A stretch of 64,000 nt of DNA. It comes from a virus. The stretch's first letter is position 1, and each line of letters starts with the position of its first letter. The translations under genes were made by a program, and so were the position numbers. The DNA is taken from positions 3,918 to 67,917 of IMG/VR virus record IMGVR_UViG_3300035137_000073; one strand, 5' to 3'. Of the stretch, positions 16,401-43,924 are shown piece after piece. Below the pieces are notes generated by a model. The model saw only the letters and a list, made by a program, of their open reading frames with translations, did no database searches and was not told the origin of the DNA.

Positions 16401-16643
16401 ATGGATTTCTGGGAACGCCTCGTGTGGTTCTTTGTCGGCTATGGCGTGCGCTGGTTTGTTGAAGCGTGGGACCGGCGACAGGATGAAATCTCATTCCGGA
16501 ATGAGAAACTGAACGCGGCCGAGGCCGATTCGGAGTACTACCGACGCCTTGCCGAGGAGTGCATTCGTACCCAGAAAACCCCCGCCGACGTGTCGCCGAC
16601 GCGACACTATGAGTCAATAGACGATCTTCTGGGGGATCTCTGA
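16401..16643 (+). CDS. Hypothetical protein with N-terminal hydrophobic segment; contains palindrome copy 1
   Basis: ORF coupled to its neighbours. Confidence 0.55.
   Translation: MDFWERLVWFFVGYGVRWFVEAWDRRQDEISFRNEKLNAAEADSEYYRRLAEECIRTQKTPADVSPTRHYESIDDLLGDL
16489..16506. repeat. 18-bp palindrome TCTCATTCCGGAATGAGA, copy 1
   Basis: Perfect palindrome; 26 bp (16486-16511) identical to copy 4. Confidence 0.9.
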
Positions 16644-16903
16644 TGGTATCGGTTCCTGAGCCTACAGATGATCGGTATTGGGCCGAACAGCAACGGCGTG
16701 AGGAAGCAGCCGAGAAAGACGCTGACCGCGTCTTGCAACTCGAGCGCTGCATTCAACAGATGGTCGAATACCCGGAACACATGCGTATAGCCGGCGAGGG
16801 AATCAGCGATAACGCGGCTCGCAGTGCCTTTCTGAAAGCTTGTACTTCAGCAGATCAGACTCTACGAGATATCGCGAACATGTATGACGTGGCGGTCCAA
16901 TGA
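16643..16903 (+). CDS. Hypothetical protein
   Basis: TGATG-coupled ORF. Confidence 0.55.
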   Translation: MVSVPEPTDDRYWAEQQRREEAAEKDADRVLQLERCIQQMVEYPEHMRIAGEGISDNAARSAFLKACTSADQTLRDIANMYDVAVQ

Positions 16904-16996
16904 GCGACGCCTTCGTGCGGTCGATCGCGGCCTTCGTGCTGGCGCTGATGCTGTTCTACCAAACCAGCAAATGGACAATGACAAAGGAGTAAGAGA

Positions 16997-17950
16997 GTGA
17001 CGCTTACAGCAGAGCAGTTAGAGATGCGGAAAGGGGGCGTCTGTGCCTCCGAGATGGCCGCGATTATGGGGGTGCATCCGCACCAGAACGCTGTCGATGT
17101 CTTCTTGGAGAAGACAGGCAAGGCTGAGCCGTTCGAGGGCAACGAATTCACGTACTGGGGCACCGTGTTGGAACCCGCCATCGCTCAGCGGTATGCTGAG
17201 GAGAACGGCGTCGAACTCGTTGAGAGCGATACGTTGGTGCATCCGAAGCATCCCTGGCTGATGGCAACTCCCGACCGGATCGTGAAGGTTGACCCGGGCC
17301 GCGGACTGGAGTGCAAGAATCGTGGTGCGTACAACGTGGATGCCTGGGGCAATCCTGGGTCCGACGAGGTGCCCGACGAAGTCGCGATTCAGTGCCACAC
17401 CAACATGGAAGTCACAAAACTTCCGCGCTGGGATGCTGCCGTTCTCGTCGGGGGTAACAACTGGCAGTCTTTCGTCCTGGAGTACGACAAAGAGATTGCC
17501 GAAGCGATCGTCGACGCCGCTCACGACTTTTGGTTCAATTACGTTCAGGCTAATATCTGTCCCGAATTGGATGGTTCGGAATCCAGCACCAACTACGTCG
17601 CCCGGAAGTGGAAGACGCACAACGATCTTCTGGTTCCTGCCACTCCGGAAATCGCTGCGACTGCCGAGGAGTTGCGTGAGATCCGCGCTCTCCTGAAGGA
17701 ACACGAGGAGGACGAGGAGCGGCTGAAAAACCTCCTCAAAGATTTCATTGGCGACCAGGCAGGGGTCAGCCTACCCACCGGCAAGAACATCACCTGGAAG
17801 CGTCCCAAGCCACGTCGGAAAACGAAATGGGAAGCGCTTGCCAAAGCTCTTCAGGGTCACGTCTCGAAGGATGTTTGGGACGATCTGTTGAATACCCACA
17901 CCGAAGAACAGCAGACCGCGCGTCGGTTCCTCTATCCCCGCAACTGGTAG
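16997..17950 (+). CDS. YqaJ/lambda-exonuclease-family viral recombinase nuclease
   Basis: RKGGVCASE...WGTVLEP...ATPDR...GLECK...Q motifs. Confidence 0.92.
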   Translation: MTLTAEQLEMRKGGVCASEMAAIMGVHPHQNAVDVFLEKTGKAEPFEGNEFTYWGTVLEPAIAQRYAEENGVELVESDTLVHPKHPWLMATPDRIVKVDPGRGLECKNRGAYNVDAWGNPGSDEVPDEVAIQCHTNMEVTKLPRWDAAVLVGGNNWQSFVLEYDKEIAEAIVDAAHDFWFNYVQANICPELDGSESSTNYVARKWKTHNDLLVPATPEIAATAEELREIRALLKEHEEDEERLKNLLKDFIGDQAGVSLPTGKNITWKRPKPRRKTKWEALAKALQGHVSKDVWDDLLNTHTEEQQTARRFLYPRNW

Positions 17951-17960
17951 GAGAACATCA

Positions 17961-19085
17961 ATGACGGTACCACCCGAAGTAGGCACTATGTCCGAATCGA
18001 CCGACTTGGTGCCGAAACAGTCAGAAGCTGTAGTCGAAACCAGTGCCACGGCCGTGGCGGCTCGAGAGAAAGCTGCCGTTGAAGCCAGATTCGTTATGGC
18101 GATGAATCGGCCGCGGAATCCTGAGGTCGCCCGTCAGAGCATCCTCAAAGCCTGTCAGCGTCCACGGTTTGCCGAGTCGGCGATGTATTCGAAACCAGTT
18201 GGTGGGCGGGCAATCACCGGCCTGTCCGTTCGGTTTGCAGAGGAAGTGTCACGTCTCTGGGGCAACATCCTCATCCAGTCTACCATCACGTTCGATGATC
18301 GTGAGCGTCGAATGTACAAGGTGGTTGCGACGGACCTCGAAACCAACACGGCGCACGACCAAGACGTAGTGGTCGAAAAGTTTGTCGAGCGTCGAAAGAT
18401 CAAGGATGGCGACGAGGTAATCAGCAGCCGGCAGAACAAGAACGGCCAGACAGTCTACCTGAAAGCCGCCACTGACGACGAGATCTTGAACAAGTGCAAT
18501 GCGGCGCTGTCGAAGGCGAAACGCAACCTCGCACTTACTCTCATTCCATCTGACATTCGCGAAGAAGCCGAAGAGACGATCATTGCGACCGTCAGGGATC
18601 GAGACGCCAAGGATCCGGACGGTGCTCGAAAGAAGCTGTTGGACTCGTTTTTCCAGCTGGGCGTATCGGCGGATCAGGTGCAGGCGTTGATCGGTAAGCC
18701 GTTGCAGCAACTGAACCCGGCTGAGATCCAGTGGCTTCGGGGTGCCTACACCGCACTGAAGGATGGCGAAGCCTCGTGGGCCGATATCGCGAGCGAGCCC
18801 GCATTCAACCGTGGCAGTGAGAAGAAGAAGGAAGAGGGCGACGGCAAGAAAGGCTCGGCCGGTTTGAAGCAGCGGGTCGCCAAGAAGGCCGACGGAAAGA
18901 AGGCGGCCAAGAAGAAGGACGACACGCCAAAGGCCGCCAATGAGGCCGGCAACGAACCCCAGCCAGAGAAAGCCAAGGAACTCACCGAGGAACAGGCGGA
19001 AGCCGCGGCAATTGCGGATGTCGAGGATGACGAAGAGGCACGGATCCGGGCCGAAGAAGAGCAGATGGCGCTGGAGGACAAATGA
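17961..19085 (+). CDS. Putative single-strand annealing/recombination protein partnering YqaJ
   Basis: Directly downstream of YqaJ; A...PR...YSKPVGG...GLSVRFAE...WGN pattern; charged disordered tail. Confidence 0.6.
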   Translation: MTVPPEVGTMSESTDLVPKQSEAVVETSATAVAAREKAAVEARFVMAMNRPRNPEVARQSILKACQRPRFAESAMYSKPVGGRAITGLSVRFAEEVSRLWGNILIQSTITFDDRERRMYKVVATDLETNTAHDQDVVVEKFVERRKIKDGDEVISSRQNKNGQTVYLKAATDDEILNKCNAALSKAKRNLALTLIPSDIREEAEETIIATVRDRDAKDPDGARKKLLDSFFQLGVSADQVQALIGKPLQQLNPAEIQWLRGAYTALKDGEASWADIASEPAFNRGSEKKKEEGDGKKGSAGLKQRVAKKADGKKAAKKKDDTPKAANEAGNEPQPEKAKELTEEQAEAAAIADVEDDEEARIRAEEEQMALEDK

Positions 19086-19393
19086 GCCAGTCCCTAGACA
19101 GGATGACTCGCCTTATTGAGATGATCGAATCGGCCCGCAAAACGTTGGCGGCATTCGAACGAGAATCCCAGATTATCGAAGCAAACGTCGACCAGTGGGT
19201 CCGTGAAAAGAAGCACTTGTCGCGGTTTGCTAGTGGTCGGCAGTACGAGATCGAAGTCGAGTGTGTTTGTGGCAACAAGGACACAATCGGCTTCACCAGA
19301 CCGAAGTGCTCTGGCGGCTGTGAACGTCTGATGATCCCGATCGGGGTCCTGACGTTCGAAGAAGCATGCGGGCAGAAGTTTTACTCGAAATAG
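19082..19393 (+). CDS. Hypothetical Cys-containing protein
   Basis: ATGA overlap; CxC and CxxxC. Confidence 0.5.
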   Translation: MSQSLDRMTRLIEMIESARKTLAAFERESQIIEANVDQWVREKKHLSRFASGRQYEIEVECVCGNKDTIGFTRPKCSGGCERLMIPIGVLTFEEACGQKFYSK

Positions 19394-19431
19394 GTCAAAG
19401 CCCGCGACGGTTACATAACACTGGAGAACAA

Positions 19432-20709
19432 ATGAGCGACGGTATCCATATTGCCTCTGTCGAGGTCCAGAATTTCCATCGGTTGTCGGTTGCCGAGGTC
19501 GAGAACGTTCCGGAAACGGGACTGGTTAGAGTCACGGGCAGGAACGCATCGGGCAAGACAAGCTTGCTTCGGTCGATCGCCGCAGCCTTGGGCGGTGCCG
19601 GCGAGATGTTGCCCGACGCGATCCGTGAGGGCGCCGACGGGGCGTCAGTCTCTCTCACGCTCACCACCGGATTCACGGTTCAGCGCAAGGTCACCGAGAG
19701 CAACCCCAAGGGCTATCTGACGGTTGAGGGGCCGGACGGTGGCAAGTTCAAGCAGGGGAAACTCAGTGAGTGGCTGGGTGAGCGTTCGTTCGACCCCCTG
19801 TCGTTCTTTTCTCTCAAGCCAGATCGGATGCGCGAGGTCTTGTTGTCGCTCAGTACCGATTCGGAGTTGCCGCAGAAGCTCGCGGATCTTCGGGCAGAGC
19901 AACAACGGATCTATGACGAGAGAACTCCGTGGATAGCCCAGGAACGGCGCGCAAAGCAGGTCAGGAAGCCCGAAGGTATACGACTCCCCCCAGTAGACAC
20001 CTCTGCCGAGATGGAGCGCCTGACGGCCCTGCAGGAGCAACAGCAGGCCCGGGAGGAGTGCCATGAATTGGCGCTTGATCGCCTCACAAAAATTCGGTCA
20101 ACACGCGCCACCATCGACAAACTGCAAGCCGAGATCAATACAATGGAGTCGGATATCAAACGGTGGTTTGCCGAACAGAAAGAAGCGTCTCGGCGTCTCG
20201 AAAACGAACTGCCAGATGTCGCAGCAGACATCCGCGCCGTAAAAGATCGGATCGCTAAGGCCGACACGATCAATGTGCAGCTGGAGCCCTGGAAGGAATG
20301 GGACCGCGCGAGAGCCAACGCCAAAGAGGCGGGCGCAGAAACGCAGAAACTCAGCAAGGCGATCGACCAGGCGAAAGCCAGCGAAAAAGACCTGCTACAG
20401 AACGCCGGCATTCCGGTACCCAGTCTGTCGTTCGACATGGAAACCGGCGAGCCCATGCTTAACGGTCATCCCCTCTCCGGTGCCAGCGGCAAAGAACGCA
20501 TCGACATGGCCGTCAGCGTGGCGATGGCAGCGAACCCCGAACTCCGGATCTGTTTGGTAGACGAAGCGCATGCGTTGGATGACGAGTCCATGGAGGCTCT
20601 TCATGATCGTGCGGTCGCTCATGGTTTTCAGATCTGGGTGGCTCGTATCAGTAACCAGGGTGGTTGTGAGATCGTGGTTGAGGATGGCGTAGCGAAGGAA
20701 TCTGAGTAG
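19432..20709 (+). CDS. SMC/Rad50-like AAA ATPase
   Basis: Walker A GRNASGKT, coiled coil, signature ASGKE, Walker B ICLVDE. Confidence 0.88.
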   Translation: MSDGIHIASVEVQNFHRLSVAEVENVPETGLVRVTGRNASGKTSLLRSIAAALGGAGEMLPDAIREGADGASVSLTLTTGFTVQRKVTESNPKGYLTVEGPDGGKFKQGKLSEWLGERSFDPLSFFSLKPDRMREVLLSLSTDSELPQKLADLRAEQQRIYDERTPWIAQERRAKQVRKPEGIRLPPVDTSAEMERLTALQEQQQAREECHELALDRLTKIRSTRATIDKLQAEINTMESDIKRWFAEQKEASRRLENELPDVAADIRAVKDRIAKADTINVQLEPWKEWDRARANAKEAGAETQKLSKAIDQAKASEKDLLQNAGIPVPSLSFDMETGEPMLNGHPLSGASGKERIDMAVSVAMAANPELRICLVDEAHALDDESMEALHDRAVAHGFQIWVARISNQGGCEIVVEDGVAKESE

Positions 20710-20712
20710 CCG

Positions 20713-21075
20713 GTGGCCACATTCACGCCCGTTCCGAAGGCGGACCTGAAGGACCCGGCCTTTCTCGAGCATTGCCGCGAGCTCTGTCGGCTATGGCGAG
20801 TCCCGTGCTTCATCAGCGGAGTACGGGACGGAACGATTGTTCCCCACCACGTACGCCCAAAGGCGGTCTGGGGCGACAAGAACAACGTCGTGTTTCTCAG
20901 TTCGGCCTACCACGTCGAGCGCAACGACTCCGCACATCGTCTCGGTAGCTACATCGCATTTGACGCAAAACATGGTTGCGATCTCGTCGCCGAGGCGTTT
21001 CGGATCTACCAGGAGTATCTGCGAATTTACCGACCCAAAGGAGAAGACAGTGAAGGTATCAATACCGACGGTTGA
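20713..21075 (+). CDS. DUF968/Ref-like HNH-fold protein
   Basis: PC..SG...PHHV...L...H......H..G...F...HG pattern. Confidence 0.55.
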   Translation: MATFTPVPKADLKDPAFLEHCRELCRLWRVPCFISGVRDGTIVPHHVRPKAVWGDKNNVVFLSSAYHVERNDSAHRLGSYIAFDAKHGCDLVAEAFRIYQEYLRIYRPKGEDSEGINTDG

Positions 21076-21253
21076 GGTGAACGCCAATCAGTTGATCGCG
21101 ATCGGCAACGGAGAAATTGCAACCCGGTTGCGGGTTCGGGGCTGGATTGAGGGTGTCATTCAGAAGGCGCTGGAAGATGTTGTGCCAGAGTATCATAGGG
21201 CGCAACTCGCGAAACACGAGGAACGCGACGACGACCTACCGGAAGGGATCTGA
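21050..21253 (+). CDS. Hypothetical protein
   Basis: AAGGAG RBS before GTG. Confidence 0.5.
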   Translation: MKVSIPTVEVNANQLIAIGNGEIATRLRVRGWIEGVIQKALEDVVPEYHRAQLAKHEERDDDLPEGI

Positions 21254-21263
21254 GGTATTCGGT

Positions 21264-21425
21264 ATGGCAACCAAAGTTCTAGACAACGAGTCGGCGTACT
21301 GGATGGCTCACAAACTAGAGGGATGCGCGAGCAACAACAAGCGCAAAGTGGTGCTTAGTAAATCCGAGGCGTTGCGAATAGCCGCAACGCTACGACGACT
21401 CATTGCGATCCGAACCGACAAGTGA
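21264..21425 (+). CDS. Hypothetical protein
   Basis: GAGGT RBS; fills the gap before the initiator gene. Confidence 0.4.
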   Translation: MATKVLDNESAYWMAHKLEGCASNNKRKVVLSKSEALRIAATLRRLIAIRTDK

Positions 21426-22185
21426 CGTGCGCGGAGGCTATCTCCCTGCTTGGCGAAAGATCTTTGATCCATCTCATCCCCTTCATCCATCGAGTACGGG
21501 GGAGCCTGCGTGTCGTGCGTTCGCCTGGTTGGACATGTGCAGCATGGCACGGTTTGAGGACGGAGACTTTCTCAAACGCGGCCAACTATACGGCAGCATC
21601 CGGACATTTGCGAAGCGTTGGAACTGGTCGCGCAGTAAGGCGGCTCGCGTGCTAAAAGAATGGGTGTCAGCAGAGCAAATTGCGGTCAAAACCGTGACGC
21701 AAAGTCGGGACAGTCGGCGGGACAGTTATCTGCAAAAACCGGGACAGTCACCTAGTGTCATAACTATATGCAACTACGACACTTACAACCCGCAGTCCGA
21801 TGAAGGTGGGACAGTTGGTGGCGAATTGTGGGACGGTTCGTGTTCAAATCGTGGGACAAGAAGAAGAAATAAGAATGGTGATAAAGAGTATATGGCGGAA
21901 TTTGAGGTTGTTTGGAAGGCATGGAAGGGGCGTCCCAACAACAACAAGAAGGCCGCATTCAAAGCGTACAAGGCTCGGCGTCGGAGTGGTGTATCGGCCG
22001 AAGACTTAAAGGCGGGAGTGGTACGCTACTACAAGTACCTCAGGGAACAGGGAAAGCTTGGCACGGAATTCATGAAGACAGCTGCGGCATTTTTTGGACC
22101 GAACGAGCATTGGAAGGATAAGTACAACGAGGAACGCAAGGCACAGCCGGATCTTCCGTTACTCAATGCCGGAGCGGGTAAATGA
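21403..22185 (+). CDS. Phage replication initiator (lambda O/replisome-organiser-like)
   Basis: wHTH segment RGQLYGSIRTFAKRWNWS, ITICNYDTY, C-terminal FEVVWKAW...KKAAFKAY, internal iterons, helicase gene next. Confidence 0.8.
   Translation: MRSEPTSDVRGGYLPAWRKIFDPSHPLHPSSTGEPACRAFAWLDMCSMARFEDGDFLKRGQLYGSIRTFAKRWNWSRSKAARVLKEWVSAEQIAVKTVTQSRDSRRDSYLQKPGQSPSVITICNYDTYNPQSDEGGTVGGELWDGSCSNRGTRRRNKNGDKEYMAEFEVVWKAWKGRPNNNKKAAFKAYKARRRSGVSAEDLKAGVVRYYKYLREQGKLGTEFMKTAAAFFGPNEHWKDKYNEERKAQPDLPLLNAGAGK
21707..21890. repeat. Putative replication origin: GGGACAG-like iterons plus A-rich tract within the initiator gene
   Basis: GGGAC(A/G) at 21707, 21719, 21741, 21808, 21830 and 21853, followed by AAGAAGAAATAAGAAT. 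Confidence 0.6.
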
Positions 22186-23084
22186 GCGATACTGACAGCT
22201 TACTTCGTCCCGTTGGCGAACAAACCCTGTACGGGATGTTCAACCGCAACTCGATGCCCGTCGAAGCGGTACCCACGATGTTGCCGACCTGGAACCAGAT
22301 GTGTCGGGATGAAGGTGGGGGGGTCGGCCTTGCTCATGGGTGGCATGTCATCGTTGCCGGCAAGACTGGATCTGGCAAGTCGTTGTTCGGGCTCAATCTT
22401 GCAGCCGCCGCAATGAAGAAGAAATACCCGGTTGGGTTCATCTCGCTTGAGATGTCGCGTACACAACTGGTGACGCGAGCGCTGTCGATCGTGTCTGGCG
22501 AGCGGGTGTCGCGGCTGGAGCCCGGGCCGGACTATGACCAAGAGGTGTTTCAGCAAGCAGCGCAGCGATGGGTAGACACCGTCGAGAACAAGTTGTTCGT
22601 CAACAAGGTCCCGATCCATTCACTTGGCGATATCGAGACGGCGATGGTTCGCGCATACGAGCAAGACTATGTGCGGTGCTTCATCACTGACTACCTCCAA
22701 CTCGCCTGGGTGTCGGACGCAAAGGGGCTCCAAGACCAGATAACCGAAGTCTCCCATAAAATCCGCGGATTGGCTCAGAAGTATCAGCTAGTGTCGATCG
22801 GGCTCAGCCAGTACAACCGTGAAACATCGAAGTCGAAAGACCGGCCTGAGGCGACAGGGTTGATGGGTGGGTCGAGCCTCGAAAACGATGCCGACCAGGT
22901 GGTTCTGCTCGACCACACCACGTTCAAGAAGACATCCAAAACCTCGGCAACCCAAGAGGTGTTGTTGGCCAAGAATCGTCACGGTTCCAAAGGGCGGATC
23001 GCCGTGGCTTGGGACTTCACGACCCTGCGGGTCACCGAACTTCAGGAGGGCGCCGCAGATGACGAAGACGATGCGCCTTTCTGA
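22182..23084 (+). CDS. dnaB: DnaB-like replicative helicase (C-terminal motor domain only)
   Basis: AGKTGSGKS, SLEM, DYLQL, LSQYNR, SLENDADQV, KNRHG. Confidence 0.9.
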   Translation: MSDTDSLLRPVGEQTLYGMFNRNSMPVEAVPTMLPTWNQMCRDEGGGVGLAHGWHVIVAGKTGSGKSLFGLNLAAAAMKKKYPVGFISLEMSRTQLVTRALSIVSGERVSRLEPGPDYDQEVFQQAAQRWVDTVENKLFVNKVPIHSLGDIETAMVRAYEQDYVRCFITDYLQLAWVSDAKGLQDQITEVSHKIRGLAQKYQLVSIGLSQYNRETSKSKDRPEATGLMGGSSLENDADQVVLLDHTTFKKTSKTSATQEVLLAKNRHGSKGRIAVAWDFTTLRVTELQEGAADDEDDAPF

Positions 23085-23415
23085 GTATCACGCCTACCTG
23101 CGCTCGCCGGAGTGGGAAGCCAAGAAGCTGAAGATGTTCCAGCTGCGCGGCCGGCACTGCGAGCGATGTGGCAGCCGGAAGGACATTGAGGTCCACCACA
23201 AGACATATAAGCGTCTTGGCCGAGAGCGGTACGAGGACCTGGAAGTGTTGTGCGGCTACTGCCACGGTCTCGAGGGTGGGTATGAGCGGTTGCACGACGA
23301 GCGTGTCGGTGATATCCAGCGGCTGAACGAGAACGATTTCGCACGAGTACTGAAACGAGTGTTGGTTCGTTCTGACCAGGCGCTCATCGAAGACGCGCAG
23401 ATGGTAGACGACTGA
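23059..23415 (+). CDS. HNH endonuclease
   Basis: YLRSPEW...CERCG...[12 protein letters not shown]...DL..LCGYCH. Confidence 0.85.
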
Positions 23416-23455
23416 TGCCCCGAGTCCGGTACCGTCCGACCGAAAGGAAAAGAAC

Positions 23456-24046
23456 GTGAGCATTGAAATACTGAACCGCTGGACAAAAGCGGTCCTATAT
23501 AAGAGCGAGGACGCGCAAGACATACGGGCTGCGGTAGTCGCGGCTGTGAACCGTGGCGCGAATCTCCGTGACGCGGATCTCCGTGACGCGGATCTCCGTG
23601 GCGCGAATCTCCGTGACGCGAATCTCCGTGACGCGGATCTCCGTGACGCGAATCTCCGTGACGCGGATCTCCGTGACGCGAATCTCCGTGGCGCGGATCT
23701 CCGTGACGCGAATCTCCGTGGCGCGGATCTCCGTGGCTTCCAAATCCCACACGGCGAACTCGTGGTGTGGAAGAAGGTGCAAGACAAGCTCGTACGGCTA
23801 CGCATTCCGGAAAAGGCGCGGCGCACCGCGTGTTTTGTGAATCGCAAGTGTCGAGCCGAGTTCGCCGTAGTGGAATGGATTGAAGACGGCGGCCCGGTGA
23901 TGAGTGACGGCATGGGAAGTGGTGCGCCGACAACATACGCTGTTGGCGAAGAGGTACGGCCTGACAAGTATGACGACGACGTGCGGGTCGATTGTTCTCA
24001 CGGCATACACTTTTTTTTGACGCGTGAAGAGGCGCGGGCGTGGTGA
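23456..24046 (+). CDS. Pentapeptide-repeat protein with DUF5758-like C-terminus
   Basis: 12 x A(N/D)LR(D/G); C-terminal KCRA...CSHGIHFF. Confidence 0.9.
23558..23737. repeat. 15-bp tandem repeat (12 units) encoding pentapeptides
   Basis: GCG(A/G)ATCTCCGTG(A/G)C units. Confidence 0.95.
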
Positions 24047-24077
24047 ATTGTTACCGTCCGACCGTGAGCATTGAGCG

Positions 24078-24350
24078 ATGATTCGACAACACAATTTCGG
24101 CGGACCGTTCTGCTGTGTTCGGTGCGGACACGCTAGTCAGTACCAGTACGAGGGGTCACGCACGCAATGCGAAGAGTGCGGCTACCGCGGCGCGATCCCC
24201 GTTACGTGGGATGACTGGCATAGGCGAGCAGATTTGTTGCGACGAAGAAAAAAGCTAGCTGTATCGGTTACTCCTCCGATGGTCACAGTAAAGGCGATGC
24301 CTACGCCACCCCCAAGCCTTTTTAGATGTAAAGGAAAAAACAGTGAGTGA
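24078..24350 (+). CDS. Zn-ribbon hypothetical protein
   Basis: CxxC...CxxC. Confidence 0.45.
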   Translation: MIRQHNFGGPFCCVRCGHASQYQYEGSRTQCEECGYRGAIPVTWDDWHRRADLLRRRKKLAVSVTPPMVTVKAMPTPPPSLFRCKGKNSE

Positions 24351-24802: not shown

Positions 24803-24812
24803 GAAAGGCGAG

Positions 24813-25091: not shown

Positions 25092-25142
25092 ATGCGGCAA
25101 TCAAGCAATTACCCGCGGCCCCGGCCGCTGAGGAGGTGAGAC

Positions 25143-30792: not shown

Positions 30793-30799
30793 GGAGAAT

Positions 30800-31453: not shown

Positions 31454-31708
31454 CTACGACCACAGATTATGCTGATGACAGACCAAGTTGCGGGCACGCA
31501 GAGCTTGGATTTGGTGTTTCGCATCAATCTGGACATCTCGTTGAGTCTCCGTTGAGAGTGCGTCAACGGTGGCGAACGATGTCCGAACGCCATTGTACGC
31601 GACTACTTGGCACGTACCCCAATCTACCGAATCAGCGCCAGGACCGCAAATAGCCCGGCGACGCCCCACCCGGCGTATCCCGCCCAACCGATTGACGGTC
31701 GCCCTCAC
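31454..31708 (-). CDS. Hypothetical protein
   Basis: GTGA overlap with the upstream minus-strand gene. Confidence 0.35.
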   Translation of the reverse strand: MRATVNRLGGIRRVGRRRAICGPGADSVDWGTCQVVAYNGVRTSFATVDALSTETQRDVQIDAKHQIQALRARNLVCHQHNLWS

Positions 31709-31950
31709 GGGTCGTTTTTCATTCCGGAATGAGATTTGGCGCGCTCGTCTTGGCGGATCTTGTCCCAGTCGAGCGCGATGGTTGATTGAGTGGGCCGCTT
31801 CCAATGTCCTTGAATTCCGAGCCAAACAAACAGGGATGGAACAGCCCAGAGGATGGTGAGGATCAGCACTGCGAAGAGGCCGCCAGCAATCGACCACGCG
31901 ATGTCCCCGAAGAGCCGGAGCGCGTCGGCTTCATGCGGTTGGAGTTGCAT
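31705..31950 (-). CDS. Single-TM hypothetical protein; contains palindrome copy 2
   Basis: Long hydrophobic helix; overlap-coupled. Confidence 0.55.
   Translation of the reverse strand: MQLQPHEADALRLFGDIAWSIAGGLFAVLILTILWAVPSLFVWLGIQGHWKRPTQSTIALDWDKIRQDERAKSHSGMKNDP
31717..31734. repeat. Palindrome copy 2 (1 mismatch)
   Basis: TTTCATTCCGGAATGAGA; flanks match copies 1 and 4 on the minus strand. Confidence 0.85.
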
Positions 31951-32407
31951 CGCGTTTTCCCATCTTGGCTTTGAGTGCAGCGAGCGCAGCGCGGCAGACC
32001 GCAAGCTCGCGAGTGTCAGCGCAGGCCACGGTGGTTGGGTTGTGGAGAATCCCGACAACGCACGCATATCGCTGCTCAACCGCGGCTATGGTTTCGACGG
32101 GAAATGCCGCGGCGCGGCCGATAGTCACATAGAATTGGTAGTAAGATTCCAGCCGATCCATCACCTCCATCATTGCGGTGCTGTGTGTGCTTACGGCAGG
32201 GTAGACCGGTTCTCCCTCGCCTGTTGTCATGAACCTGTCGTACGGCCTCTGCCGTTCAGATGTGAACTGCTCGCCAACTGGGTGTCCTGGACTGGCTTCA
32301 ACTACCGTATGTCTGTATATGTCTGGTACTGGACCGATTCCCACGACCTTGCATACCAGTTCGTCTAGCTCCGGGCCTGCCGGCATGGTGTCTATGTCGA
32401 TGGTCAT
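31931..32407 (-). CDS. Phage ABA-sandwich-like protein
   Basis: MPAGPELDELV...P.VST....MEV...T.ELAVCRAAL. Confidence 0.65.
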   Translation of the reverse strand: MTIDIDTMPAGPELDELVCKVVGIGPVPDIYRHTVVEASPGHPVGEQFTSERQRPYDRFMTTGEGEPVYPAVSTHSTAMMEVMDRLESYYQFYVTIGRAAAFPVETIAAVEQRYACVVGILHNPTTVACADTRELAVCRAALAALKAKMGKRDATPTA

Positions 32408-35644: not shown

Positions 35645-35662
35645 TCTCATTCCGGAATGAGA
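35645..35662. repeat. Palindrome copy 3 (perfect), upstream of the 35614 gene
   Basis: TCTCATTCCGGAATGAGA. Confidence 0.9.
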
Positions 35663-35766: not shown

Positions 35767-36684
35767 CTACTCGGCCTCAACTATGGTGTAGGTGGGGCGG
35801 GAGTGCTCGCCGTGCTGTAGGTAGTACGTCTCGGCGCCCTGCTCGTCGATCCAGTCCTGAGCCTCGGCGTAGGTCGCATACTCGCGGATGTCGTGGCTGT
35901 CGTCGCGGGCAAAATCGTCACGGGGCGCACCGGCCGTGCCAGGATAGTACTGAGGCTCTGCCCAGATACGGCATGGGCCGTCGTGGGTCACGATCTCGAT
36001 GTACAACGAGTCATCGTCCCATATCGCCGCCTCAGTCTCTCTCAGCGAGCGGATGCAATCCTCGGCCTCGTCCATGGTCGCGCATGTCGCGGTGTCGGCG
36101 TCACATCCAGGATACTCCGAGGTCCCGTCCGGCATGCGGACGCGCACGACGTATTGACGTGCGACCGTCAGCGCCTCAAGGCCGTCTAGTCCCCACTCAG
36201 CGTACCACTCAGCCTGCGATATGCCAGCGTCATATGGCGTATCCCACCGGCCCAGCTGAGTGTAGATCGTGTGCGAGGGGGGCTCACAAGACACGGACAC
36301 CGGCCCACTCTCGGCATCTACGTCGATCCACAGACTACCACCTGACGGTATGGCGTAGCGGTAGATCTTGTAGTGCGGGTGCGACCATGACTCAGTAGCT
36401 GTCTCGTCGCTCGGCAGCTCGGCGTACTCCTCGATGATCTCGCGGTACACCTCGCCGATGTCCAGCGCCTCAACCTGCGCGTCAGTGTAGCCGTGCTCGC
36501 GCAGGTCGGCCTCGGCAGTATATGCTCCGGTGATATAGCCCGTAGGTCCGTCGGCCGTGTCTATCACCTCAGTAGCGGCGCCCTGATCAGACACGTAGTG
36601 AGCCACGGCGATCATACGGATGATATCCTGCGGTACGGTGGGGGCTGCGGGCGTAGCCCGCTCATTGGTGGGTAGGTCTGACAT
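35767..36684 (-). CDS. Acidic hypothetical protein, first gene of the leftward operon
   Basis: 305 aa, AGGAG RBS. Confidence 0.65.
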   Translation of the reverse strand: MSDLPTNERATPAAPTVPQDIIRMIAVAHYVSDQGAATEVIDTADGPTGYITGAYTAEADLREHGYTDAQVEALDIGEVYREIIEEYAELPSDETATESWSHPHYKIYRYAIPSGGSLWIDVDAESGPVSVSCEPPSHTIYTQLGRWDTPYDAGISQAEWYAEWGLDGLEALTVARQYVVRVRMPDGTSEYPGCDADTATCATMDEAEDCIRSLRETEAAIWDDDSLYIEIVTHDGPCRIWAEPQYYPGTAGAPRDDFARDDSHDIREYATYAEAQDWIDEQGAETYYLQHGEHSRPTYTIVEAE

Positions 36685-38000: not shown

Positions 38001-38243
38001 GTGTTGAAACGGGAGTTGAGGATGGTACGAGGGGGTTCAGGGGGTGATTATGAGCGTTATCCGAACGCGGTTTTGGTGCGAGTGTGGCGTCGTTTTTTGG
38101 GGTTGGGGCAGCGAGACGCGTCGGAGCGATTGGGAGTGAGTCGATCGACGTTATGGCGTTGGGAGGAGCGTGGTAGTCGGCCTCCTCGTCGGGTTTGGCG
38201 TCGGATGTTGGAGGTATTGGTGGACCTATCGAAGGAAAGGTGA
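38001..38243 (+). CDS. XRE-family HTH protein
   Basis: LGQRDASERLGVSRSTLWRWE. Confidence 0.7.
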   Translation: MLKRELRMVRGGSGGDYERYPNAVLVRVWRRFLGLGQRDASERLGVSRSTLWRWEERGSRPPRRVWRRMLEVLVDLSKER

Positions 38244-38944
38244 GGTGGTTTGATGAGGTTGGGCCCTGTTATGGGAACCGCCTGAATAGGGGGTGTGACA
38301 TCGAGCCTTACTACGAGGAAGACGGGATCCAGATATTCCATGGGGATTGTAGGGAGGTGTTGCCGACACTTTCGCCAGTCGATCTAGTGTTGACAGATCC
38401 GCCGTACAGCACGGGGCGACCAGAGGGAGAGTTTGCAGCGAATGGTAATGTTGCCGTATCCCTTCACCTCGCAAGCCGGTTAGCGCCGACAATGGCTGTG
38501 TTTGGGACTGCAAGCGGTCGCGGGGTCGAGTTTTTACGTTCTACGATTCGTGAGTTGCCGCACAATCGAATGCTGGTGTGGCATCGCTCATACGTTAACT
38601 CACCGGCAGCTGGGCCATGGTGTTGGGATATTGTGATTATCCACGTTTTCGGTAAGGGATCATTCGGTAGACCAGAGGTGAGTTCGCTCATTCAAACCGA
38701 TGGCACGCGCAAGCTTGCCGAAGAGACCGGTCATAGGTCTCCGGTGTTTACGTCGGTAATGGAGCATTTATACGTGCCATTTGCGCCGGGTGTCGTGCTC
38801 GACCCGTTTATGGGCAGCGGTCCGACATTGTTGGCCGCGAAACGCCATGATGGCAAGGCCATCGGCATCGAGATCGAGGAGCGGTACTGCGAGATAGCCG
38901 CCCAGCGGTTGAGTCAACAGGTTTTGAACTTAGAGGGGGTGTGA
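38240..38944 (+). CDS. DNA amino-methyltransferase (N6A/N4C, beta class)
   Basis: HGDCREVL, TDPPY, VLDPFMGSG, GIEIEERYC. Start codon uncertain. Confidence 0.9.
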   Translation: MRWFDEVGPCYGNRLNRGCDIEPYYEEDGIQIFHGDCREVLPTLSPVDLVLTDPPYSTGRPEGEFAANGNVAVSLHLASRLAPTMAVFGTASGRGVEFLRSTIRELPHNRMLVWHRSYVNSPAAGPWCWDIVIIHVFGKGSFGRPEVSSLIQTDGTRKLAEETGHRSPVFTSVMEHLYVPFAPGVVLDPFMGSGPTLLAAKRHDGKAIGIEIEERYCEIAAQRLSQQVLNLEGV

Positions 38945-39679: not shown

Positions 39680-40183
39680 GTGAGCAAGATGTCGTTACCG
39701 GATCAGGTTTTAGCGTTGGTGGATGTGGCTGTGGAGGAGAATACGTTCAGTTTGGATGCTGTGAAGGGCGTTCAGCGGCTCCGGAGTGAACATGCGGACA
39801 ACGTAATACGGATCGAGGAGATGCAGAAGTCGATCGACGAACTGGAGGAACGGGCCGAGAGTTGGGAGAAGCAGTTCCAGGTCGAACGCGGGCGATTCAA
39901 CGAACTGCAACTCAAGATGGATGAGTACGCGAAGCGCGAGAAGGAATTGGCGGAGCGCGAGTTCGAGTGTCGGGTTGGAGAAATGCGAGCTGTTGAGATG
40001 AATCAACGGCTTATCGATATGAAGGATTTGGTGGGGATGGTCTTTCGGAATCCGGTGTTGAAGCGAACGGTGACGGAGCCAGTGATGGTACCGCCGCCAA
40101 GTTTCGATTCTGGCTCTGGTTACGGGCTCCAGTGCGGTCATGTCGAGTCTCACACGCGGACGGAAGAAGAGGAGGAGGTCTGA
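39680..40183 (+). CDS. Coiled-coil hypothetical protein
   Basis: Heptad-rich ORF. Confidence 0.6.
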   Translation: MSKMSLPDQVLALVDVAVEENTFSLDAVKGVQRLRSEHADNVIRIEEMQKSIDELEERAESWEKQFQVERGRFNELQLKMDEYAKREKELAEREFECRVGEMRAVEMNQRLIDMKDLVGMVFRNPVLKRTVTEPVMVPPPSFDSGSGYGLQCGHVESHTRTEEEEEV

Positions 40184-40446
40184 TGTCGAGAATTGAGTTG
40201 TCGTCGCCGATGGCGGCGCCGGGTTCAGAGGATCCGGGTACGGTTGCGGCGGAGTGGTTGGATGAGGTGTGCGATATGACCTGTGGAATTCTGGGTTGTT
40301 CGTACAATGATGTTCTGACGGCGGCCGTGAAGAAGATAGTCGAAGAGGAGACGTGGGGCGCGTTGTTGCGGAACGAGCGGTTCATGGAGGTGGTACGGGC
40401 GGCGGTACAGGGATCGATTGACGGTTGGTTGGCCGAAAAGGAGTAG
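40183..40446 (+). CDS. Hypothetical protein
   Basis: TGATG coupling, GGAGG RBS. Confidence 0.55.
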   Translation: MSRIELSSPMAAPGSEDPGTVAAEWLDEVCDMTCGILGCSYNDVLTAAVKKIVEEETWGALLRNERFMEVVRAAVQGSIDGWLAEKE

Positions 40447-40451
40447 GCGAG

Positions 40452-40964
40452 ATGACGTTACTGACGGCTGTTTTGGTGGTTGTCTGTGGTGGTGTTTTGG
40501 CGGCATACGTGCTTCGTCGCCCATCGTTTGCACCAGGACTGGAACGAGCGTTCGAGGGTTTTGGTGACCGGGTCGTATCGGATCTGGCGTCGCGATTCGA
40601 GTCGTTGCGGGATCTGGATCGGTTGTCGGCTCGGAAACTGGAGTTGGAGGCCGAGGTTGCGGCGTTGTGGGCCGAGAAGGCCGATATCGAGAAGGCGTTC
40701 GCGCAGAGGCGGCGGGATTTGGAGCACGAGATGGGGCTGCAGAAGAAGGAGATGGACGCGGCACTCGAGCGGGGCCAGAAAACGGCCGACCTGGAAGCCG
40801 ATCGGAAAGTGCTGGAAGCTGAGCGGAAGTTCAACGACGACGTGTTGCAGGCGAAAGAGGCTGCGTTCAAGGAACAGGTAGCGGACCTGCGCGAGATTGC
40901 GGACCGGATGTTCCAGTTGGTACCGGACATGAAGGGCCGGATTGAGTTGAAGGGGGATGTGTAG
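40452..40964 (+). CDS. Membrane-anchored coiled-coil protein
   Basis: N-terminal TM then coiled coil. Confidence 0.65.
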   Translation: MTLLTAVLVVVCGGVLAAYVLRRPSFAPGLERAFEGFGDRVVSDLASRFESLRDLDRLSARKLELEAEVAALWAEKADIEKAFAQRRRDLEHEMGLQKKEMDAALERGQKTADLEADRKVLEAERKFNDDVLQAKEAAFKEQVADLREIADRMFQLVPDMKGRIELKGDV

Positions 40965-40967
40965 GAA

Positions 40968-42053
40968 ATGTCGGCGTTCTGGCCAATTGCTGGTCTGTTC
41001 GGCGGTGCTGGCGGACCTCTCGGCAACGCCGTGGCACAGCAACAAGAGTGGCTGCGGGAGGCTGCATTACAGGACGAATTGGCGCAGAAGCGGGCCGAGC
41101 TAAAGGCGTTGCGACAGCAGGAACACGCTCGCCAGCAACGGGAATTAGACTGCCTGTGTCTGTACCCCGAAACGCGGGCCGCACTTGAGCAGCAGAGGTT
41201 GCGGCGAATGGAAGAGGATCTAGATGTACGCATCGCGTCCGATCTCGTCCTTGTGGACGCTGGCGGTGGTTCACCGGAGTACGAGCCGAAAGTGTGCGAT
41301 TCATGGTTTGACTCCGAGTTGTTCTTGAAAACGCAAGAAATCGAACTCAGAGCCCGATGTGAAGGCCGCGATCTTTCGCATGAAGACGCGAAACGTGAAG
41401 CCCGTGCGGCTCTGATGACCAATCCGGCGTATGTCGCGAAACTGCGCGAGAGACACCGTAAGCAACGAGCGGAGTTGGATTCAGCCACACGGCAACTCGG
41501 CCTAACACAGGAGCAGCTTAAGGCGGCGACGGATCCGTTGGTTATCCCGAAAGGGGCGCTATCGGCACCTGTCGATCTAGCCGCGATGGTCGAGGAGACG
41601 CGTCGGGTAGGTAGTCGGATGTTGGGGACGGATGATACGACGAGTCAGTACGGATCGCAGGCGCTTCAGGGTGAGGCGACGAGACACGCTCAGCAGGCCG
41701 CCAAGACGGCGATCGCGTTGTTTCGGGCACATGTACGTCCGACACTGTCCAAGACGGTCGCAGGCCACTTCCTTAATGACCAGGAACGTCGGGCCGCACA
41801 GGAATGGGTCGATGCGGCGTGGGAGCGCACGAAACGTTGGTGTCCCCATGACTGCGGGCTATCGTACTTTCGTGAAGTAATATTCATGCCGGCTGTCGAG
41901 CTTTTCAATGACCAACTTGCCCATGGCATTTACCGACACCTCGAACCAGGCGACGTCGAGGGCATGCACACAGAATTCCAACTGCTTTTGCGGACATTCG
42001 TAGACAGAAAAAACAACAAAGCACAGACAATACCACGCATTCCGCCCTTTTAA
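40968..42053 (+). CDS. Hypothetical protein
   Basis: 361-aa helical ORF. Confidence 0.6.
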   Translation: MSAFWPIAGLFGGAGGPLGNAVAQQQEWLREAALQDELAQKRAELKALRQQEHARQQRELDCLCLYPETRAALEQQRLRRMEEDLDVRIASDLVLVDAGGGSPEYEPKVCDSWFDSELFLKTQEIELRARCEGRDLSHEDAKREARAALMTNPAYVAKLRERHRKQRAELDSATRQLGLTQEQLKAATDPLVIPKGALSAPVDLAAMVEETRRVGSRMLGTDDTTSQYGSQALQGEATRHAQQAAKTAIALFRAHVRPTLSKTVAGHFLNDQERRAAQEWVDAAWERTKRWCPHDCGLSYFREVIFMPAVELFNDQLAHGIYRHLEPGDVEGMHTEFQLLLRTFVDRKNNKAQTIPRIPPF

Positions 42054-42067
42054 GAAGGGATAGTCCA

Positions 42068-42517
42068 ATGATCCGAGTTCAGATAGACGAGTGGTTGCAT
42101 CACGACGACATGTTTGATCGTGAGCCGAAGGCGGAGGATCCGAACGGTCCTCGAACGAGTCCGGGCCGGATGATGCACTCGCGCACGTTGCTGTTGCAGG
42201 ACTTCGAGCATCTGGAGGTCGCGCCTGTTGTGGCGTTTCTGAACGGTTTGGTGGCGCCGCCGTTGTGCCGGTGCGGGCATTCGAAGGAGATGCACACGGG
42301 TGGATGCTCAGCGTGGGATCCTGGTGGTTTCGGTACCTGCGACTGCAAGGAGTACCAGCCGGTGACGGTCAACGACTTCCTGAATCTTCAGAATGAACTA
42401 GGTTCGGTGCGGCAGGACCTGGAGAGTGTGTGCCAGGATCTTCGGACGGCTCTGAAGGCTCGGGAGGAGCTGCGCCGCAAGCTCGAGCGGCTGGAAAAGA
42501 AGGGAAAGAAGAAATGA
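42068..42517 (+). CDS. Hypothetical protein (Cys/His knuckle plus coiled coil)
   Basis: CRCGH...H...C...CDC. Confidence 0.6.
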   Translation: MIRVQIDEWLHHDDMFDREPKAEDPNGPRTSPGRMMHSRTLLLQDFEHLEVAPVVAFLNGLVAPPLCRCGHSKEMHTGGCSAWDPGGFGTCDCKEYQPVTVNDFLNLQNELGSVRQDLESVCQDLRTALKAREELRRKLERLEKKGKKK

Positions 42518-42762
42518 GCGTACCCACTACATCTGAGTTACTAGCCGTTGATGTCGAGTCCGGTGTTACCGTGACCCTGCCGATGCAGCGGTATCTGCAT
42601 TTGATCTGGAATGACGCCGAATTGAGACGAATTCAACGACGGGCAGACGGAAAGATCGCAGACGTGTTGGAGGAGTGTCTTGCAACGCGCTGTTCGGACC
42701 TACGGAAGCTGTTGCAAACAACCGCCCAAACATACCGGGAGCTCAGCGGAGAGAAGAAATGA
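42514..42762 (+). CDS. Hypothetical protein
   Basis: ATGA overlap. Confidence 0.55.
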   Translation: MSVPTTSELLAVDVESGVTVTLPMQRYLHLIWNDAELRRIQRRADGKIADVLEECLATRCSDLRKLLQTTAQTYRELSGEKK

Positions 42763-42908
42763 GTCTCACGGGTCCGAAGAAGTTTCGGATCTTCTGTCTT
42801 CGTTGCAATTGGGAAAGATGGCCGTGGTTCAGCGATCGTGATTTGTGGGGTCAGTACTCGGCCTGTCCGGCGTGTGGTGGCCCTACTGACGGATTGGAGA
42901 AGAAATGA
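42759..42908 (+). CDS. Small Zn-ribbon protein
   Basis: CLRC...CPACGG; ATGA overlap. Confidence 0.55.
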   Translation: MSLTGPKKFRIFCLRCNWERWPWFSDRDLWGQYSACPACGGPTDGLEKK

Positions 42909-43111
42909 GCGCAATCCAAATTACTTTGCGCAATGGGGACACTTACTTCACGCAGGACTATGACACGCCAGCCGAGGTTCGTGGTGCGATTCAAGAAGGT
43001 GACGAGTTGGCTGTGTTTTGGTTTGCCAGGTGGGGTAGGCGGTTTAGCGAGACGTTGTTGGTGGATTGGGACGAAGTCGGATACCTAGTGACGGAGCGAG
43101 AGATTCCGTGA
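42905..43111 (+). CDS. Hypothetical protein
   Basis: ATGA overlap. Confidence 0.55.
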   Translation: MSAIQITLRNGDTYFTQDYDTPAEVRGAIQEGDELAVFWFARWGRRFSETLLVDWDEVGYLVTEREIP

Positions 43112-43347
43112 GTCCCGTATCTCCCGGTGAGCAGTTTGTGGATGTCTTCCGGTCGTTGTTTCGGGCTGCGGTTGAGCAGCCGAGGCCGTCGCCGGAGCTG
43201 GTAGTAGCGATAGAGAAGGCGCGTTCGATGGCGATGGGTGTGGGTCAGGCTCCGATTCGGGAGCGTGTTGCTGAGTCGGTTGGTAGTGGGGCGCGCGCGG
43301 AGCGTTTGGCGGAAAGCCTACTGAGGATCTACGAGGACGAGGAATGA
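43108..43347 (+). CDS. Hypothetical protein
   Basis: GTGA overlap. Confidence 0.5.
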   Translation: MSPVSPGEQFVDVFRSLFRAAVEQPRPSPELVVAIEKARSMAMGVGQAPIRERVAESVGSGARAERLAESLLRIYEDEE

Positions 43348-43351
43348 AACG

Positions 43352-43924
43352 ATGGCAACAGCAGTAGTAGAGCACGAGAAATTCGCCCCGACACGGTACA
43401 ACCCGCCAAAGGAACTGAGTTTCGAGGAATGGGGGCAGGATGTCGCGACGGCGATCGCGATGGAGAAGGCGCTGCCGTGGTGGCTTGGCGACTTGCTCAA
43501 TCTCGGCGAGAACCGATGGGGCGAGAAGTACACACAGGCCGTTTCGATTACCGGAATCGCCCCTGAACGGCTGGCGAATTACGCGTACGTCGCGGCTCAA
43601 ATCTCATTCCGGAATGAGAAACTGTCGTGGACGCACCATCTTGTCGTCGCGAAGCTGGAGCCTGGCGAGCAGAAGATGTGGCTGGATACGGCGGAAGCGA
43701 ACGAGTGGAGCTCGAAGGAATTGCGCGAGGCGGTCAAGGCTCACCAGGCGCCGACCTCGAGCGGCGATTCGGACGATGAGAAGCCGGAGGTACGCGAGAA
43801 GGTACCTGACGGCGAGTTCATGAATCGTCCGATTCAGTATCGGATTGATTCAACGACGGACGGATTGGTAGTACGGGGTCCTGAGGAGTTGCTGGTGGCG
43901 TTATCGAACGTCGTGGAGGGCTGA
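43352..43924 (+). CDS. LmbU-like HTH DNA-binding protein carrying palindrome copy 4 in its coding sequence
   Basis: LSFEEW...WWLGD...GE...Y.QA..ITG...L.NY..VA...R...LSWTHH..VA.L....Q..WL..A....S..ELR. Confidence 0.75.
   Translation: MATAVVEHEKFAPTRYNPPKELSFEEWGQDVATAIAMEKALPWWLGDLLNLGENRWGEKYTQAVSITGIAPERLANYAYVAAQISFRNEKLSWTHHLVVAKLEPGEQKMWLDTAEANEWSSKELREAVKAHQAPTSSGDSDDEKPEVREKVPDGEFMNRPIQYRIDSTTDGLVVRGPEELLVALSNVVEG
43602..43619. repeat. Palindrome copy 4 (perfect)
   Basis: TCTCATTCCGGAATGAGA, encoding ISFRNEK. Confidence 0.9.

Follow-up and report, generated by a model that had tools for sequence, protein, structure and literature searches.

The IMG/VR record IMGVR_UViG_3300035137_000073 comprises 67,917 bp and is rated 94% complete, and its bases 3918-67917 form the 64,000-nucleotide stretch analysed here (the window). 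Scans against PHROGs, Pfam, and NCBIfam identify it as a tailed phage whose genes form three transcription blocks. We focused on an 18-bp palindrome, TCTCATTCCGGAATGAGA, which occurs at four places of the window, one of them inside a plus-strand gene (43352..43924) for a 190-residue protein (named the 43352 protein) that is related to the LmbU family and carries a predicted DNA-binding domain like that of ParB. The palindrome is perfect at 16489..16506 (copy 1), 35645..35662 (copy 3), and 43602..43619 (copy 4), and contains one mismatch at 31717..31734 (copy 2, TTTCATTCCGGAATGAGA), the same set that had been listed in an earlier reading of the bare sequence (the original prediction). Nothing beyond the four copies was found in the window at up to three mismatches, and the complete record holds the identical four sites and none additional. 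Not one of 100 dinucleotide-preserving shuffles contained any match (0 expected vs 4 observed), and a control pattern read backwards gave 0 matches in the complete 67,917-bp record.

Copies 1 and 4 are translated in the same way, as EISFRNEKL in an 80-residue open reading frame (ORF; 16401..16643, plus strand) and as QISFRNEKL in the 43352 protein, where the palindrome encodes I84-K90 and is centred on the C|G of the codon of the invariant Arg87. Copy 2 forms the last codons of a minus-strand ORF (31705..32079), which probably encodes a small membrane protein that starts at an internal methionine, and reads KSHSGMKNDP followed by the stop codon. The host ORFs of copies 1 and 2 have no family match, and both pass a crude codon-position GC filter (third position >0.62, second <0.55); the overlapping ORF 31454-31897 (minus strand), which would read copy 2 as ISFRNEK, fails it. 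Copy 3 is intergenic, 27 nt upstream of a GGAGA-N6-ATG start (35614) of the next minus-strand gene (35222-35614) and after the first gene of the leftward operon (35767-36684). The frames are therefore those claimed by the original prediction, with ISFRNEK in two genes, KSHSGM in a third, and one non-coding copy, and its statement that copies 1 and 4 share 26 bp (AAATCTCATTCCGGAATGAGAAACTG) is likewise confirmed. When copies 2 and 3 are inverted, AATCTCATTCCGGAATGA(G/A)AAA is common to all four copies. The flanks had also been said to point along transcription, which is true of 4/4 copies and statistically weak, as four sites would do so by chance 1 time in 8; the co-orientation could equally reflect common descent of one copied 22-26-bp patch. 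With respect to the operons, copy 1 lies in the second gene of the rightward replication/recombination operon, approximately 370 bp downstream of a promoter-like site (16113-16142), copy 3 lies about 1 kb past the start of the leftward block, and copy 2 lies in the last gene at the far end of that block, beside the convergent junction with the rightward operon.

The NCBIfam profile NF038070 ('LmbU family transcriptional regulator') matches residues 19-148 of the 43352 protein on profile positions 7-138 of 171, with E=2.5e-28 and 99.2 bits, which is below the curated cut-off of 125 bits; the LmbU-like assignment of the original prediction thus stands in the sense that we treat the protein as an outlying LmbU relative and not as a curated member. 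Scores above the cut-off, 135.2 and 126.4 bits, were obtained for homologs from Verrucomicrobiota that belong to the same clade. No family was found in PHROGs, Pfam gave DUF1016_N alone at a sub-threshold score, and a sequence profile search of the PDB returned one irrelevant row (E=0.75). Neither ParBc nor any other N-terminal domain was found in Pfam at E<=0.01, and the structural matches are confined to the DNA-binding domain. An AlphaFold2 model built from a 34-row alignment (pLDDT 83) contains an N-terminal helical domain of approximately residues 24-132 and a small C-terminal beta-hairpin plus helix (residues 160-189), the latter confined to the closest relatives. The top VIA-align match of this model is the DNA-binding domain of Caulobacter ParB with parS (6s6h_B; Z 10.0, rmsd 3.5, 97 residues aligned, model residues 40-138), followed by Thermus Spo0J (1vz0_A; Z 9.2, rmsd 1.8, 85 aligned) and, further down, by KorB (7.3), SopB (6.5), P1 ParB (6.0), and VirB (5.9). 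Z values of 6.1-7.9 are also obtained with the helical domain of Raf1, and a middling Z is thus not decisive by itself. Foldseek against the pdb placed ParB-family chains first with weak E values (0.018 to 1) and gave no row at E<=0.001; the assignment of the domain as a predicted ParB/Spo0J-type DNA-binding fold thus rests on VIA-align.

In the model, residues 84-90 encoded by copy 4 form a loop directly after helix 71-83, in agreement with the predicted position of the copy just behind the helix-turn-helix (HTH), and this loop, which contains the arginine of the palindrome centre, probably follows the recognition helix. The protein is also predicted to form a symmetric homodimer, with a score of 0.66 as compared with 0.01 for the best of three controls, at least 42% contact agreement, and a partner pLDDT of at least 66 in the runs. 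The mark for a homodimer was reached by 20/30 proteins solved as pairs of one chain and by 1/23 solved as single chains; our own alignment was used for the 43352 protein, and these counts therefore hold roughly. The predicted interface is formed by the long N-terminal helix and residues 87, 89, and 92.

The original prediction had proposed that homologs carry a different palindrome at the equivalent codons. Only 6 relatives were found in a large protein database, and the relatives P0002 and P0003 retain SFRNEKL. A locus search with the single protein as query confirmed none, and an alignment query was required, which yielded 36 IMG/VR loci and 22 bacterial-genome loci (mostly Verrucomicrobiota metagenome-assembled genomes). 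L097 was dropped because its contig holds residues 12-60 only; 58 homologs gave 50 distinct 26-mers. At least seven perfect pairs (at least 14 bp) around the C|G centre of the arginine codon were present in 28 of the 50 distinct homologs, and 25 had all nine inner pairs; of the 2537 other CG centres in these genes, 1 reached at least seven pairs. The proposal thus passed strongly. The palindromes of the homologs differ in sequence, occupy the same codons as ISFRNEK, and are always centred on the C|G of the arginine codon, the arginine being invariant in our alignment (A3) and present in 151/151 proteins examined. Examples are TTTCTCTGTGC|GCACAGAGAAA (L009), ATGTTTGCCGCC|GGCGGCAAACAT (L020), AAAAGTTGTTAC|GTAACAACTTTT (L019), ATTGCCACGAC|GTCGTGGCAAT (L032), and TTTGTCATTAC|GTAATGACAAA (L090).

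This link between palindrome and gene, seen in 28/50 distinct homologs from unrelated genomes, bears on whether another factor binds the four sites, either a host regulator or one of the other HTH proteins that the phage does encode (33059-33301 on the minus strand and 16177-16395 on the plus strand), in which case the overlap with the LmbU-like gene would be incidental. We consider this extremely unlikely. The exact 18-mer is absent from IMG/VR outside the record of this phage, and 401 Verrucomicrobiota genomes contain no exact match and single 1-mismatch matches in 2 genomes, which has little bearing on a host operator as the host phylum is a guess. Six single exact matches were found in metagenome contigs; the six stretches, once fetched, showed no tblastx similarity to the window and no LmbU-like ORF, and we treat them as chance or unrelated. 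Separately, an isolated exact half-site, TCTCATTCC (ACTCTCATTCC with flanks), lies at 18539-18547 inside ORF 17961-19085, where about 0.5 such 9-mers would be expected by chance. A restriction-site role of the palindrome was rejected, since the record contains 32 TCCGGA and 390 CCGG sequences and the sites are therefore not rare islands.

The two arms of the in-gene palindrome change together. In a codon-anchored alignment of all 50 distinct homologs, non-palindromic ones included, paired cells amounted to 77.0% as compared with 50.2% in shuffles (0/500 reached the observed value), and the covariation score was 0.601 vs 0.168 in shuffles (0/500) and 0.117-0.176 in registers slid by 1-3. L076 and L087 both contain the peptide MSVRTDN, for which the former uses TGTCTGTCC|GGACAGACA and the latter TGTCGGTAC|GTACCGACA, and the SLRN group uses the codons TCG TTG CGC AAC, TCA TTG CGC AAT, or TCA TTA CGT AAT. 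The same peptide is thus written with different, mutually compensating synonymous codons, which means that selection acts on the DNA dyad, as the original prediction had suspected from the window copies. We conclude that palindromy at this fixed codon is selected at the DNA level family-wide. A profile search of 1.84 billion representatives extended the family to 13,530 clusters (50% identity) at E<=0.001, 10,159 at 1e-10, and 3,420 at 1e-30. Among the best 150 representatives plus the 43352 protein (151 in total), positions -1/+1 and -2/+2 were both codon-complementary in 108, as compared with a mean of 40.6 and a maximum of 54 in 1000 shuffles; the constraint on the DNA thus leaves its mark across the wider protein family. 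Residue pairs such as V/T, C/H or Q, S/D or E, and F or L/K or N co-vary, since the two codons of a pair have to be reverse complements of each other.

Further copies were observed in several related elements. The closest full-length relative, an IMG/VR record of 72 kb (G001) that is syntenic with the phage record at 27-81% protein identity, has a second copy as a perfect 16-mer, TTATGTGCGCACATAA, which is intergenic, 11 nt before GGAGG-N4-ATG, in the operon counterpart of the leftward block of the window, and resembles copy 3. In the bacterial locus L124 (genome G012), the gene order is a 429-residue ORF of integrase size (no Pfam match), three repeats, HTH_17, DUF669, a helicase-type gene with an AAA_25 domain, and the LmbU-like gene; each repeat, at the head of the operon whose last gene is the LmbU-like one, carries GTTCGCTGCGCAGCGAAC (two perfect, one variant), and the same 18-mer lies inside the LmbU-like gene of the locus. 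The G012 genome contains 11 sites at up to two mismatches, as against 0 for the control, and at least five LmbU-family genes, three of which have an identical or one-base-different in-gene palindrome. A doubly compensated variant lies 2.9 kb from the LmbU-like gene of L126. In the 16.4-kb viral contig L017, a tandem array at 15737-15850, between an integrase and an HTH_17 gene, consists of four different palindromes of the family type (TTGTCATTGCGATATGACAA, TGTCTTTCCGGAAAGACA, TCTGTGCGCACAGA, and ATGTTGTTACGTAACAACAT), each of which resembles the in-gene palindrome of another homolog, and one of which differs from the in-gene site of L017 at pair 2 only; it is possible that the array is a read-out of several sibling regulators. 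In both L017 and L124 the family palindromes lie upstream of the HTH_17 gene. Given these copies at regulatory positions in other elements, the in-gene palindrome appears to be of the same kind as regulatory sites.

The intergenic, operator-like copies of G001, L124, and L017 also bear on the notion that the palindrome is a functionless by-product, in which a peptide that is half palindromic by virtue of the code is completed by arm-to-arm templated correction and the extra copies are copied patches. The code does lend itself to this. The conserved peptide is hydrophobic-S-x-R-x-D/E-K/N, often S-R-R-R-D/E, where the TC of serine pairs with the GA of aspartate or glutamate and runs of arginine CGN codons are self-complementary, so that the peptide alone gives approximately 10 of 14 positions in the RRR class; the 26 bp shared in the same frame by copies 1 and 4 also look like a copied patch. 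Even so, 17-18 of 18 bases are kept in copy 3, which is non-coding, and in copy 2, which is in another frame, the extra copies at those intergenic places are perfect, and the palindromes span 9-12 pairs, beyond the conserved peptide. A by-product is thus very unlikely.

The founder of the family indicates what such proteins bind. LmbU, the cluster-situated regulator of lincomycin biosynthesis in Streptomyces lincolnensis, is described in the available text of two papers as a homodimer with an HTH modelled on Spo0J, which represses its own promoter and binds the palindrome CGCCGGCG, extended to TCGCCGGCGA, the octamer being needed for binding (PMC6510168, PMC10763038). The in-gene palindromes of L020, L021, L023, L093/L099, and L109 include CGCCGGCG, which at the sequence level is the strongest tie to what LmbU-family proteins bind; the commonest loop peptide is S-R-R-R-D/E-N, with the palindrome form TCnCGnC|GnCGnGA. 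The 43352 protein has a family-level similarity to LmbU over residues 19-148 and a palindrome likewise centred on C|G. It differs in being phage-borne, in lacking the N-terminal auto-inhibitory domain, and in having an AT-richer 18-mer site that lies inside the coding sequence, of which the accessible portions of the lmbU papers make no mention (PMC6510168, PMC10763038). Our literature search, with supplements and most subscription papers outside its scope, gave no description of an in-gene site for the LmbU family or its phage members.

From sequence comparison and the structural model, we favor, with moderate confidence, the reading that the 43352 protein itself has the 18-bp palindrome as its cognate DNA site, which would be a self-encoded operator or parS-like site. 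In view of the predicted symmetric dimer, one monomer would bind each 9-bp half-site. The protein, made from the rightward block that leads into the terminase genes, would bind all four sites and may act there as a repressor or a roadblock, with copy 4 limiting expression of its own gene and the three further copies damping the two early operons. Because the site lies inside the gene, gene and site are inherited as one unit; its place within the codons of the DNA-binding domain would make the two inseparable by recombination, which would suit mosaic mobile genomes. For this phage, the reading predicts a control circuit of four sites through which the early operons are linked to a gene of the block that precedes the terminase.

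Several observations weigh against this assignment, beginning with the NF038070 score of the protein below the family cut-off. At least seven perfect pairs are lacking in 22 of the 50 distinct homologs, and at least 10 of these have no palindrome at all, for example the VP..VRNP.LSW group and L033-35. Among three high-scoring Actinomycetota LmbU genes, a long palindrome is found in L109 only (GTGTCCCGCCGGCGGGACAC; 198 bits), whereas L121 has 10 bp and L108 none. The palindrome had been predicted to recur in every cognate genome, which did not hold: 8 of 10 related phage records read whole have the in-gene copy only, and 8 of 10 bacterial loci with 10-kb flanks have no extra copy (one 2-mismatch match to a 14-mer in record G003 is probably chance). 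A network of dispersed sites is thus not general, and one in-gene site by itself says little about a regulon; judging from these genomes, the in-gene site appears to be the conserved, family-wide feature and the dispersed set of the window an exception. Sigma-70-type scans found no promoter adjoining copies 2-4. A second kind of palindrome with the core GGACATGTCC, which differs from the in-gene palindrome, occurs as pairs about 90 bp apart (L012 3089/3178, L024 2816/2904, L126 4119/4215), 2.5-3.9 kb before the helicase-type gene, and is presumably the operator of another regulator. Finally, pairs 2 and 5 are wobble positions that change frequently, among all four pair types, and always with compensation. 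Among the 30 sequences with at least 8/9 inner pairs, pair 2, which flanks the C|G and uses all four pair types, is complementary in 29, and pair 5 in all 30. L079 and L081 have an identical HTH stretch and differ in one palindrome pair (pair 2), which is compensated; together with L076/L087, the only other clear case, they argue against a simple residue-to-base code. A dimer that ignores pairs 2 and 5 would not enforce symmetry there, and one that reads them would need very frequent shifts of specificity, so this pattern fits base pairing or arm-to-arm correction at least as well as read-out by a protein.

Compensatory synonymous changes under the same peptide, and even under the same HTH stretch, are the classic signature of base pairing, and the palindrome may act as a nucleic-acid structure (an mRNA or single-stranded DNA hairpin, or a cruciform) in transcript processing, pausing, or replication priming, with the encoded protein not its reader. 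The co-orientation of all four window copies with transcription would suit such a structure, as would the mismatches of otherwise intact palindromes, which lie near the centre, in the place of a loop, at pair 2 in L025, L027, L088, L089, and L095. On the other side, the pair beside the C|G is complementary in those 29/30 sequences though a loop of 2 nt is too short to close, few pairs are of the G-U type (0-4 cells per pair), nothing in Rfam reached the gathering threshold, and the founder of the LmbU family binds its palindrome as duplex DNA. The RNA hairpin would also be weak (copy 1, -5.9 kcal/mol with a z of -0.68), the mismatch of copy 2 reducing it to -1.7 kcal/mol, and on these folding energies the RNA hairpin was rejected. 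A structural role in general is, in our judgement, unlikely.

Read-out by the encoded protein would place the system close to ParB/Spo0J-parS, Noc-NBS, and KorB-OB, with which it shares the predicted fold of the DNA-binding domain and CG-centred palindromes (13-16 bp in those systems) in dispersed copies, some of them possibly coding. One parS of B. subtilis lies inside spo0J itself, for which our literature search gave no confirmation. In the LmbU-like family the in-gene site differs in being at a fixed codon family-wide. The 43352 protein differs from ParB/Spo0J in lacking the ParB/Srx CTPase domain (no Pfam match), and no ParA-type protein was found among about 57 window ORFs, each scanned in at least one of PHROGs, Pfam, and NCBIfam; neither clamp loading and sliding nor partition is therefore to be expected. 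Of the ParB/parS-like arrangement proposed in the original prediction, the fold and the style of the sites remain and the partition system does not. In phage N15, four inverted-repeat sites are scattered over the genome. These four copies (IR1-4) are bound by the ParB-family protein SopB, according to the part of the source available (PMC7205306), and the number of copies in one phage genome matches that of the window, whereas N15 is a plasmid prophage with a full SopA/SopB pair, neither of which was seen in this phage. The mRNA structure at the 5' end of parB that is described in the accessible text of PMC13371061 is a different phenomenon from the in-gene palindrome.

These likenesses would also allow the sites to be centromere- or origin-like and the 43352 protein to be a binder of segregation or replication-origin sites instead of a transcription regulator. 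The ParB-type fold and the N15 precedent agree with this, as does the gene neighborhood, since an AAA_25-domain protein (replicative-helicase type, about 650-680 residues; for example L017 6802-8835 and L124 10802-12763) is the conserved upstream neighbor directly before the short LmbU-like genes at 24 loci, and the single site per genome in 8/10 relatives would suit an origin or a pac-like site. However, the failure to find a ParB N-terminal domain or ParA in the approximately 57 window ORFs scanned, the transcription factor role of LmbU, the oddity of four origins or pac sites in one phage, and the fusions to three kinds of DNA methyltransferase described below, which fit neither role, make it decidedly unlikely, and no iterons or AT-rich stretch were seen by eye in 118 bp around the in-gene site. 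The last point also separates the system from that of phage lambda, where four tandem iterons and an AT-rich origin lie inside the gene of the replication initiator O, and sites and protein change together among phages. Binding sites inside the own gene that vary together with the protein among relatives are common to both; the 43352 gene contains a single dyad (scan for the best palindrome, one mismatch allowed).

Two further systems share features with the one described here. The stoperators of Cluster A mycobacteriophages are asymmetric 13-14-mers in tens of copies, which serve as transcription-co-oriented roadblocks for another type of repressor. The window copies are similarly spread through transcribed regions and co-oriented, but have a perfect-dyad core, number four, and are asymmetric only in their flanks. 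SsoII-type methyltransferases carry an N-terminal HTH for autoregulation, with the operator in the promoter region. Many LmbU-like homologs likewise combine a DNA-binding domain with a DNA methyltransferase, with an HTH of another type; the 43352 protein is itself unfused. The fusion was found in 9/10 long homologs scanned (the viral loci L009, L021, L023, L026, L027, L032, L036, L037, and L040), and the long C-terminal part of L033 (364 residues) has no Pfam match. Three methyltransferase families are involved (Dam PF05869, MT-A70 PF05063, and N6_N4_Mtase PF01555), and the fusion therefore arose repeatedly. By analogy with the SsoII type, these fusions suggest self-control of methylase expression.

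If the encoded protein binds the palindrome, the targets of thousands of unstudied LmbU-like/ParB-DNA-binding-domain-like proteins would be readable from their own genes, regulons and the targets of the fused methyltransferases would be predictable by sequence alone, and the family would show with unusual clarity, in a natural example, how selection on DNA shapes a protein. It would also provide a testable model for mobile elements that hold regulator and site together. A much wider reading, which we regard as doubtful, is that of a self-referential protein-DNA system across the whole very large family (13,530 clusters), in which the site lies in the Arg-loop codons of its own reader and binding would occur first in cis, so that each phage or integrative element could mark, regulate, or protect its own genome as opposed to those of co-resident relatives, with the L017 array reading out which sibling elements are present. 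A non-synonymous change of the site also alters the loop; site and reader would then be inseparable by recombination and may shift specificity together.

The three transcription blocks provide the context of the four sites. The rightward block (approximately 16177-31213) begins with an HTH_17 (AlpA/Xis-like) gene (16177..16395, plus strand; PF12728, E=1.7e-13), the first gene of the operon of copy 1, and encodes a RecE-like exonuclease, an SMC/Rad50-like ATPase, a DnaB_C helicase, a pentapeptide-repeat protein, and RusA. The leftward block (36684-31705) contains an LPD29 protein and a small HTH repressor-like protein. A second rightward block from 36885 contains a TerS-like gene, a separate DNA methyltransferase gene (38195..38944, plus strand; phrog_67, E=2.7e-32), and the LmbU-like gene, followed by TerL at 48058 and large ORFs that are presumed to be structural (53006-55246, the one scanned, had no match). 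No integrase was seen among the scanned ORFs, and megablast of window positions 40000-48000 against GenBank phages gave no match. The sole near-consensus sigma-70-type site in the scanned regions (12000-54900) is TTGACA, an 18-nt spacer, and TATACT (11/12) at 16113-16142, which is preceded by a terminator-like hairpin (15891-15910) and is probably the promoter of the replication/recombination operon. In the related loci, the combination of integrase, HTH_17, DUF669, and AAA_25 looks like a family of small integrative, self-replicating Verrucomicrobiota elements.

Some repeats and palindromes near these genes were observed in addition. The three repeats of L124 are approximately 125-140 bp each and lie at 13877-14160 (G012:C2, about 333.9-334.2 kb), 3.8 kb upstream of the LmbU-like gene in the same operon. 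Short-period repeats, read as VECVEC... or HSTHST... depending on the frame, occupy approximately 4970-5440 of G001, downstream of its second palindrome copy. A perfect 24-bp palindrome, AAGCCGCGAATCGATTCGCGGCTT, lies at 9678-9701 of L009 (G002 43250), some 230 bp upstream of the gene for the LmbU-like-Dam fusion, and is unlike the in-gene palindrome of that gene. In the window, TGTTTCACGTGGAACA at 16043-16058 is a perfect match to TGTTNCACGTGNAACA, which we take to be the chromosomal parS consensus; it is non-coding, 55 bp upstream of the promoter-like site 16113-16142 and before the HTH_17 gene. It is unique in the window at up to two mismatches, a looseness at which 20/100 shuffles also match, an exact match being far rarer, and no such match was found in the related records G001-G010; host ParB might be recruited to the phage through it. 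The pentapeptide-repeat protein carries DUF5758 (23456-24046), and the LPD29-domain protein (large polyvalent protein associated) lies at 34193-34813 on the minus strand; proteins of both kinds are often tied to phage-host conflict.

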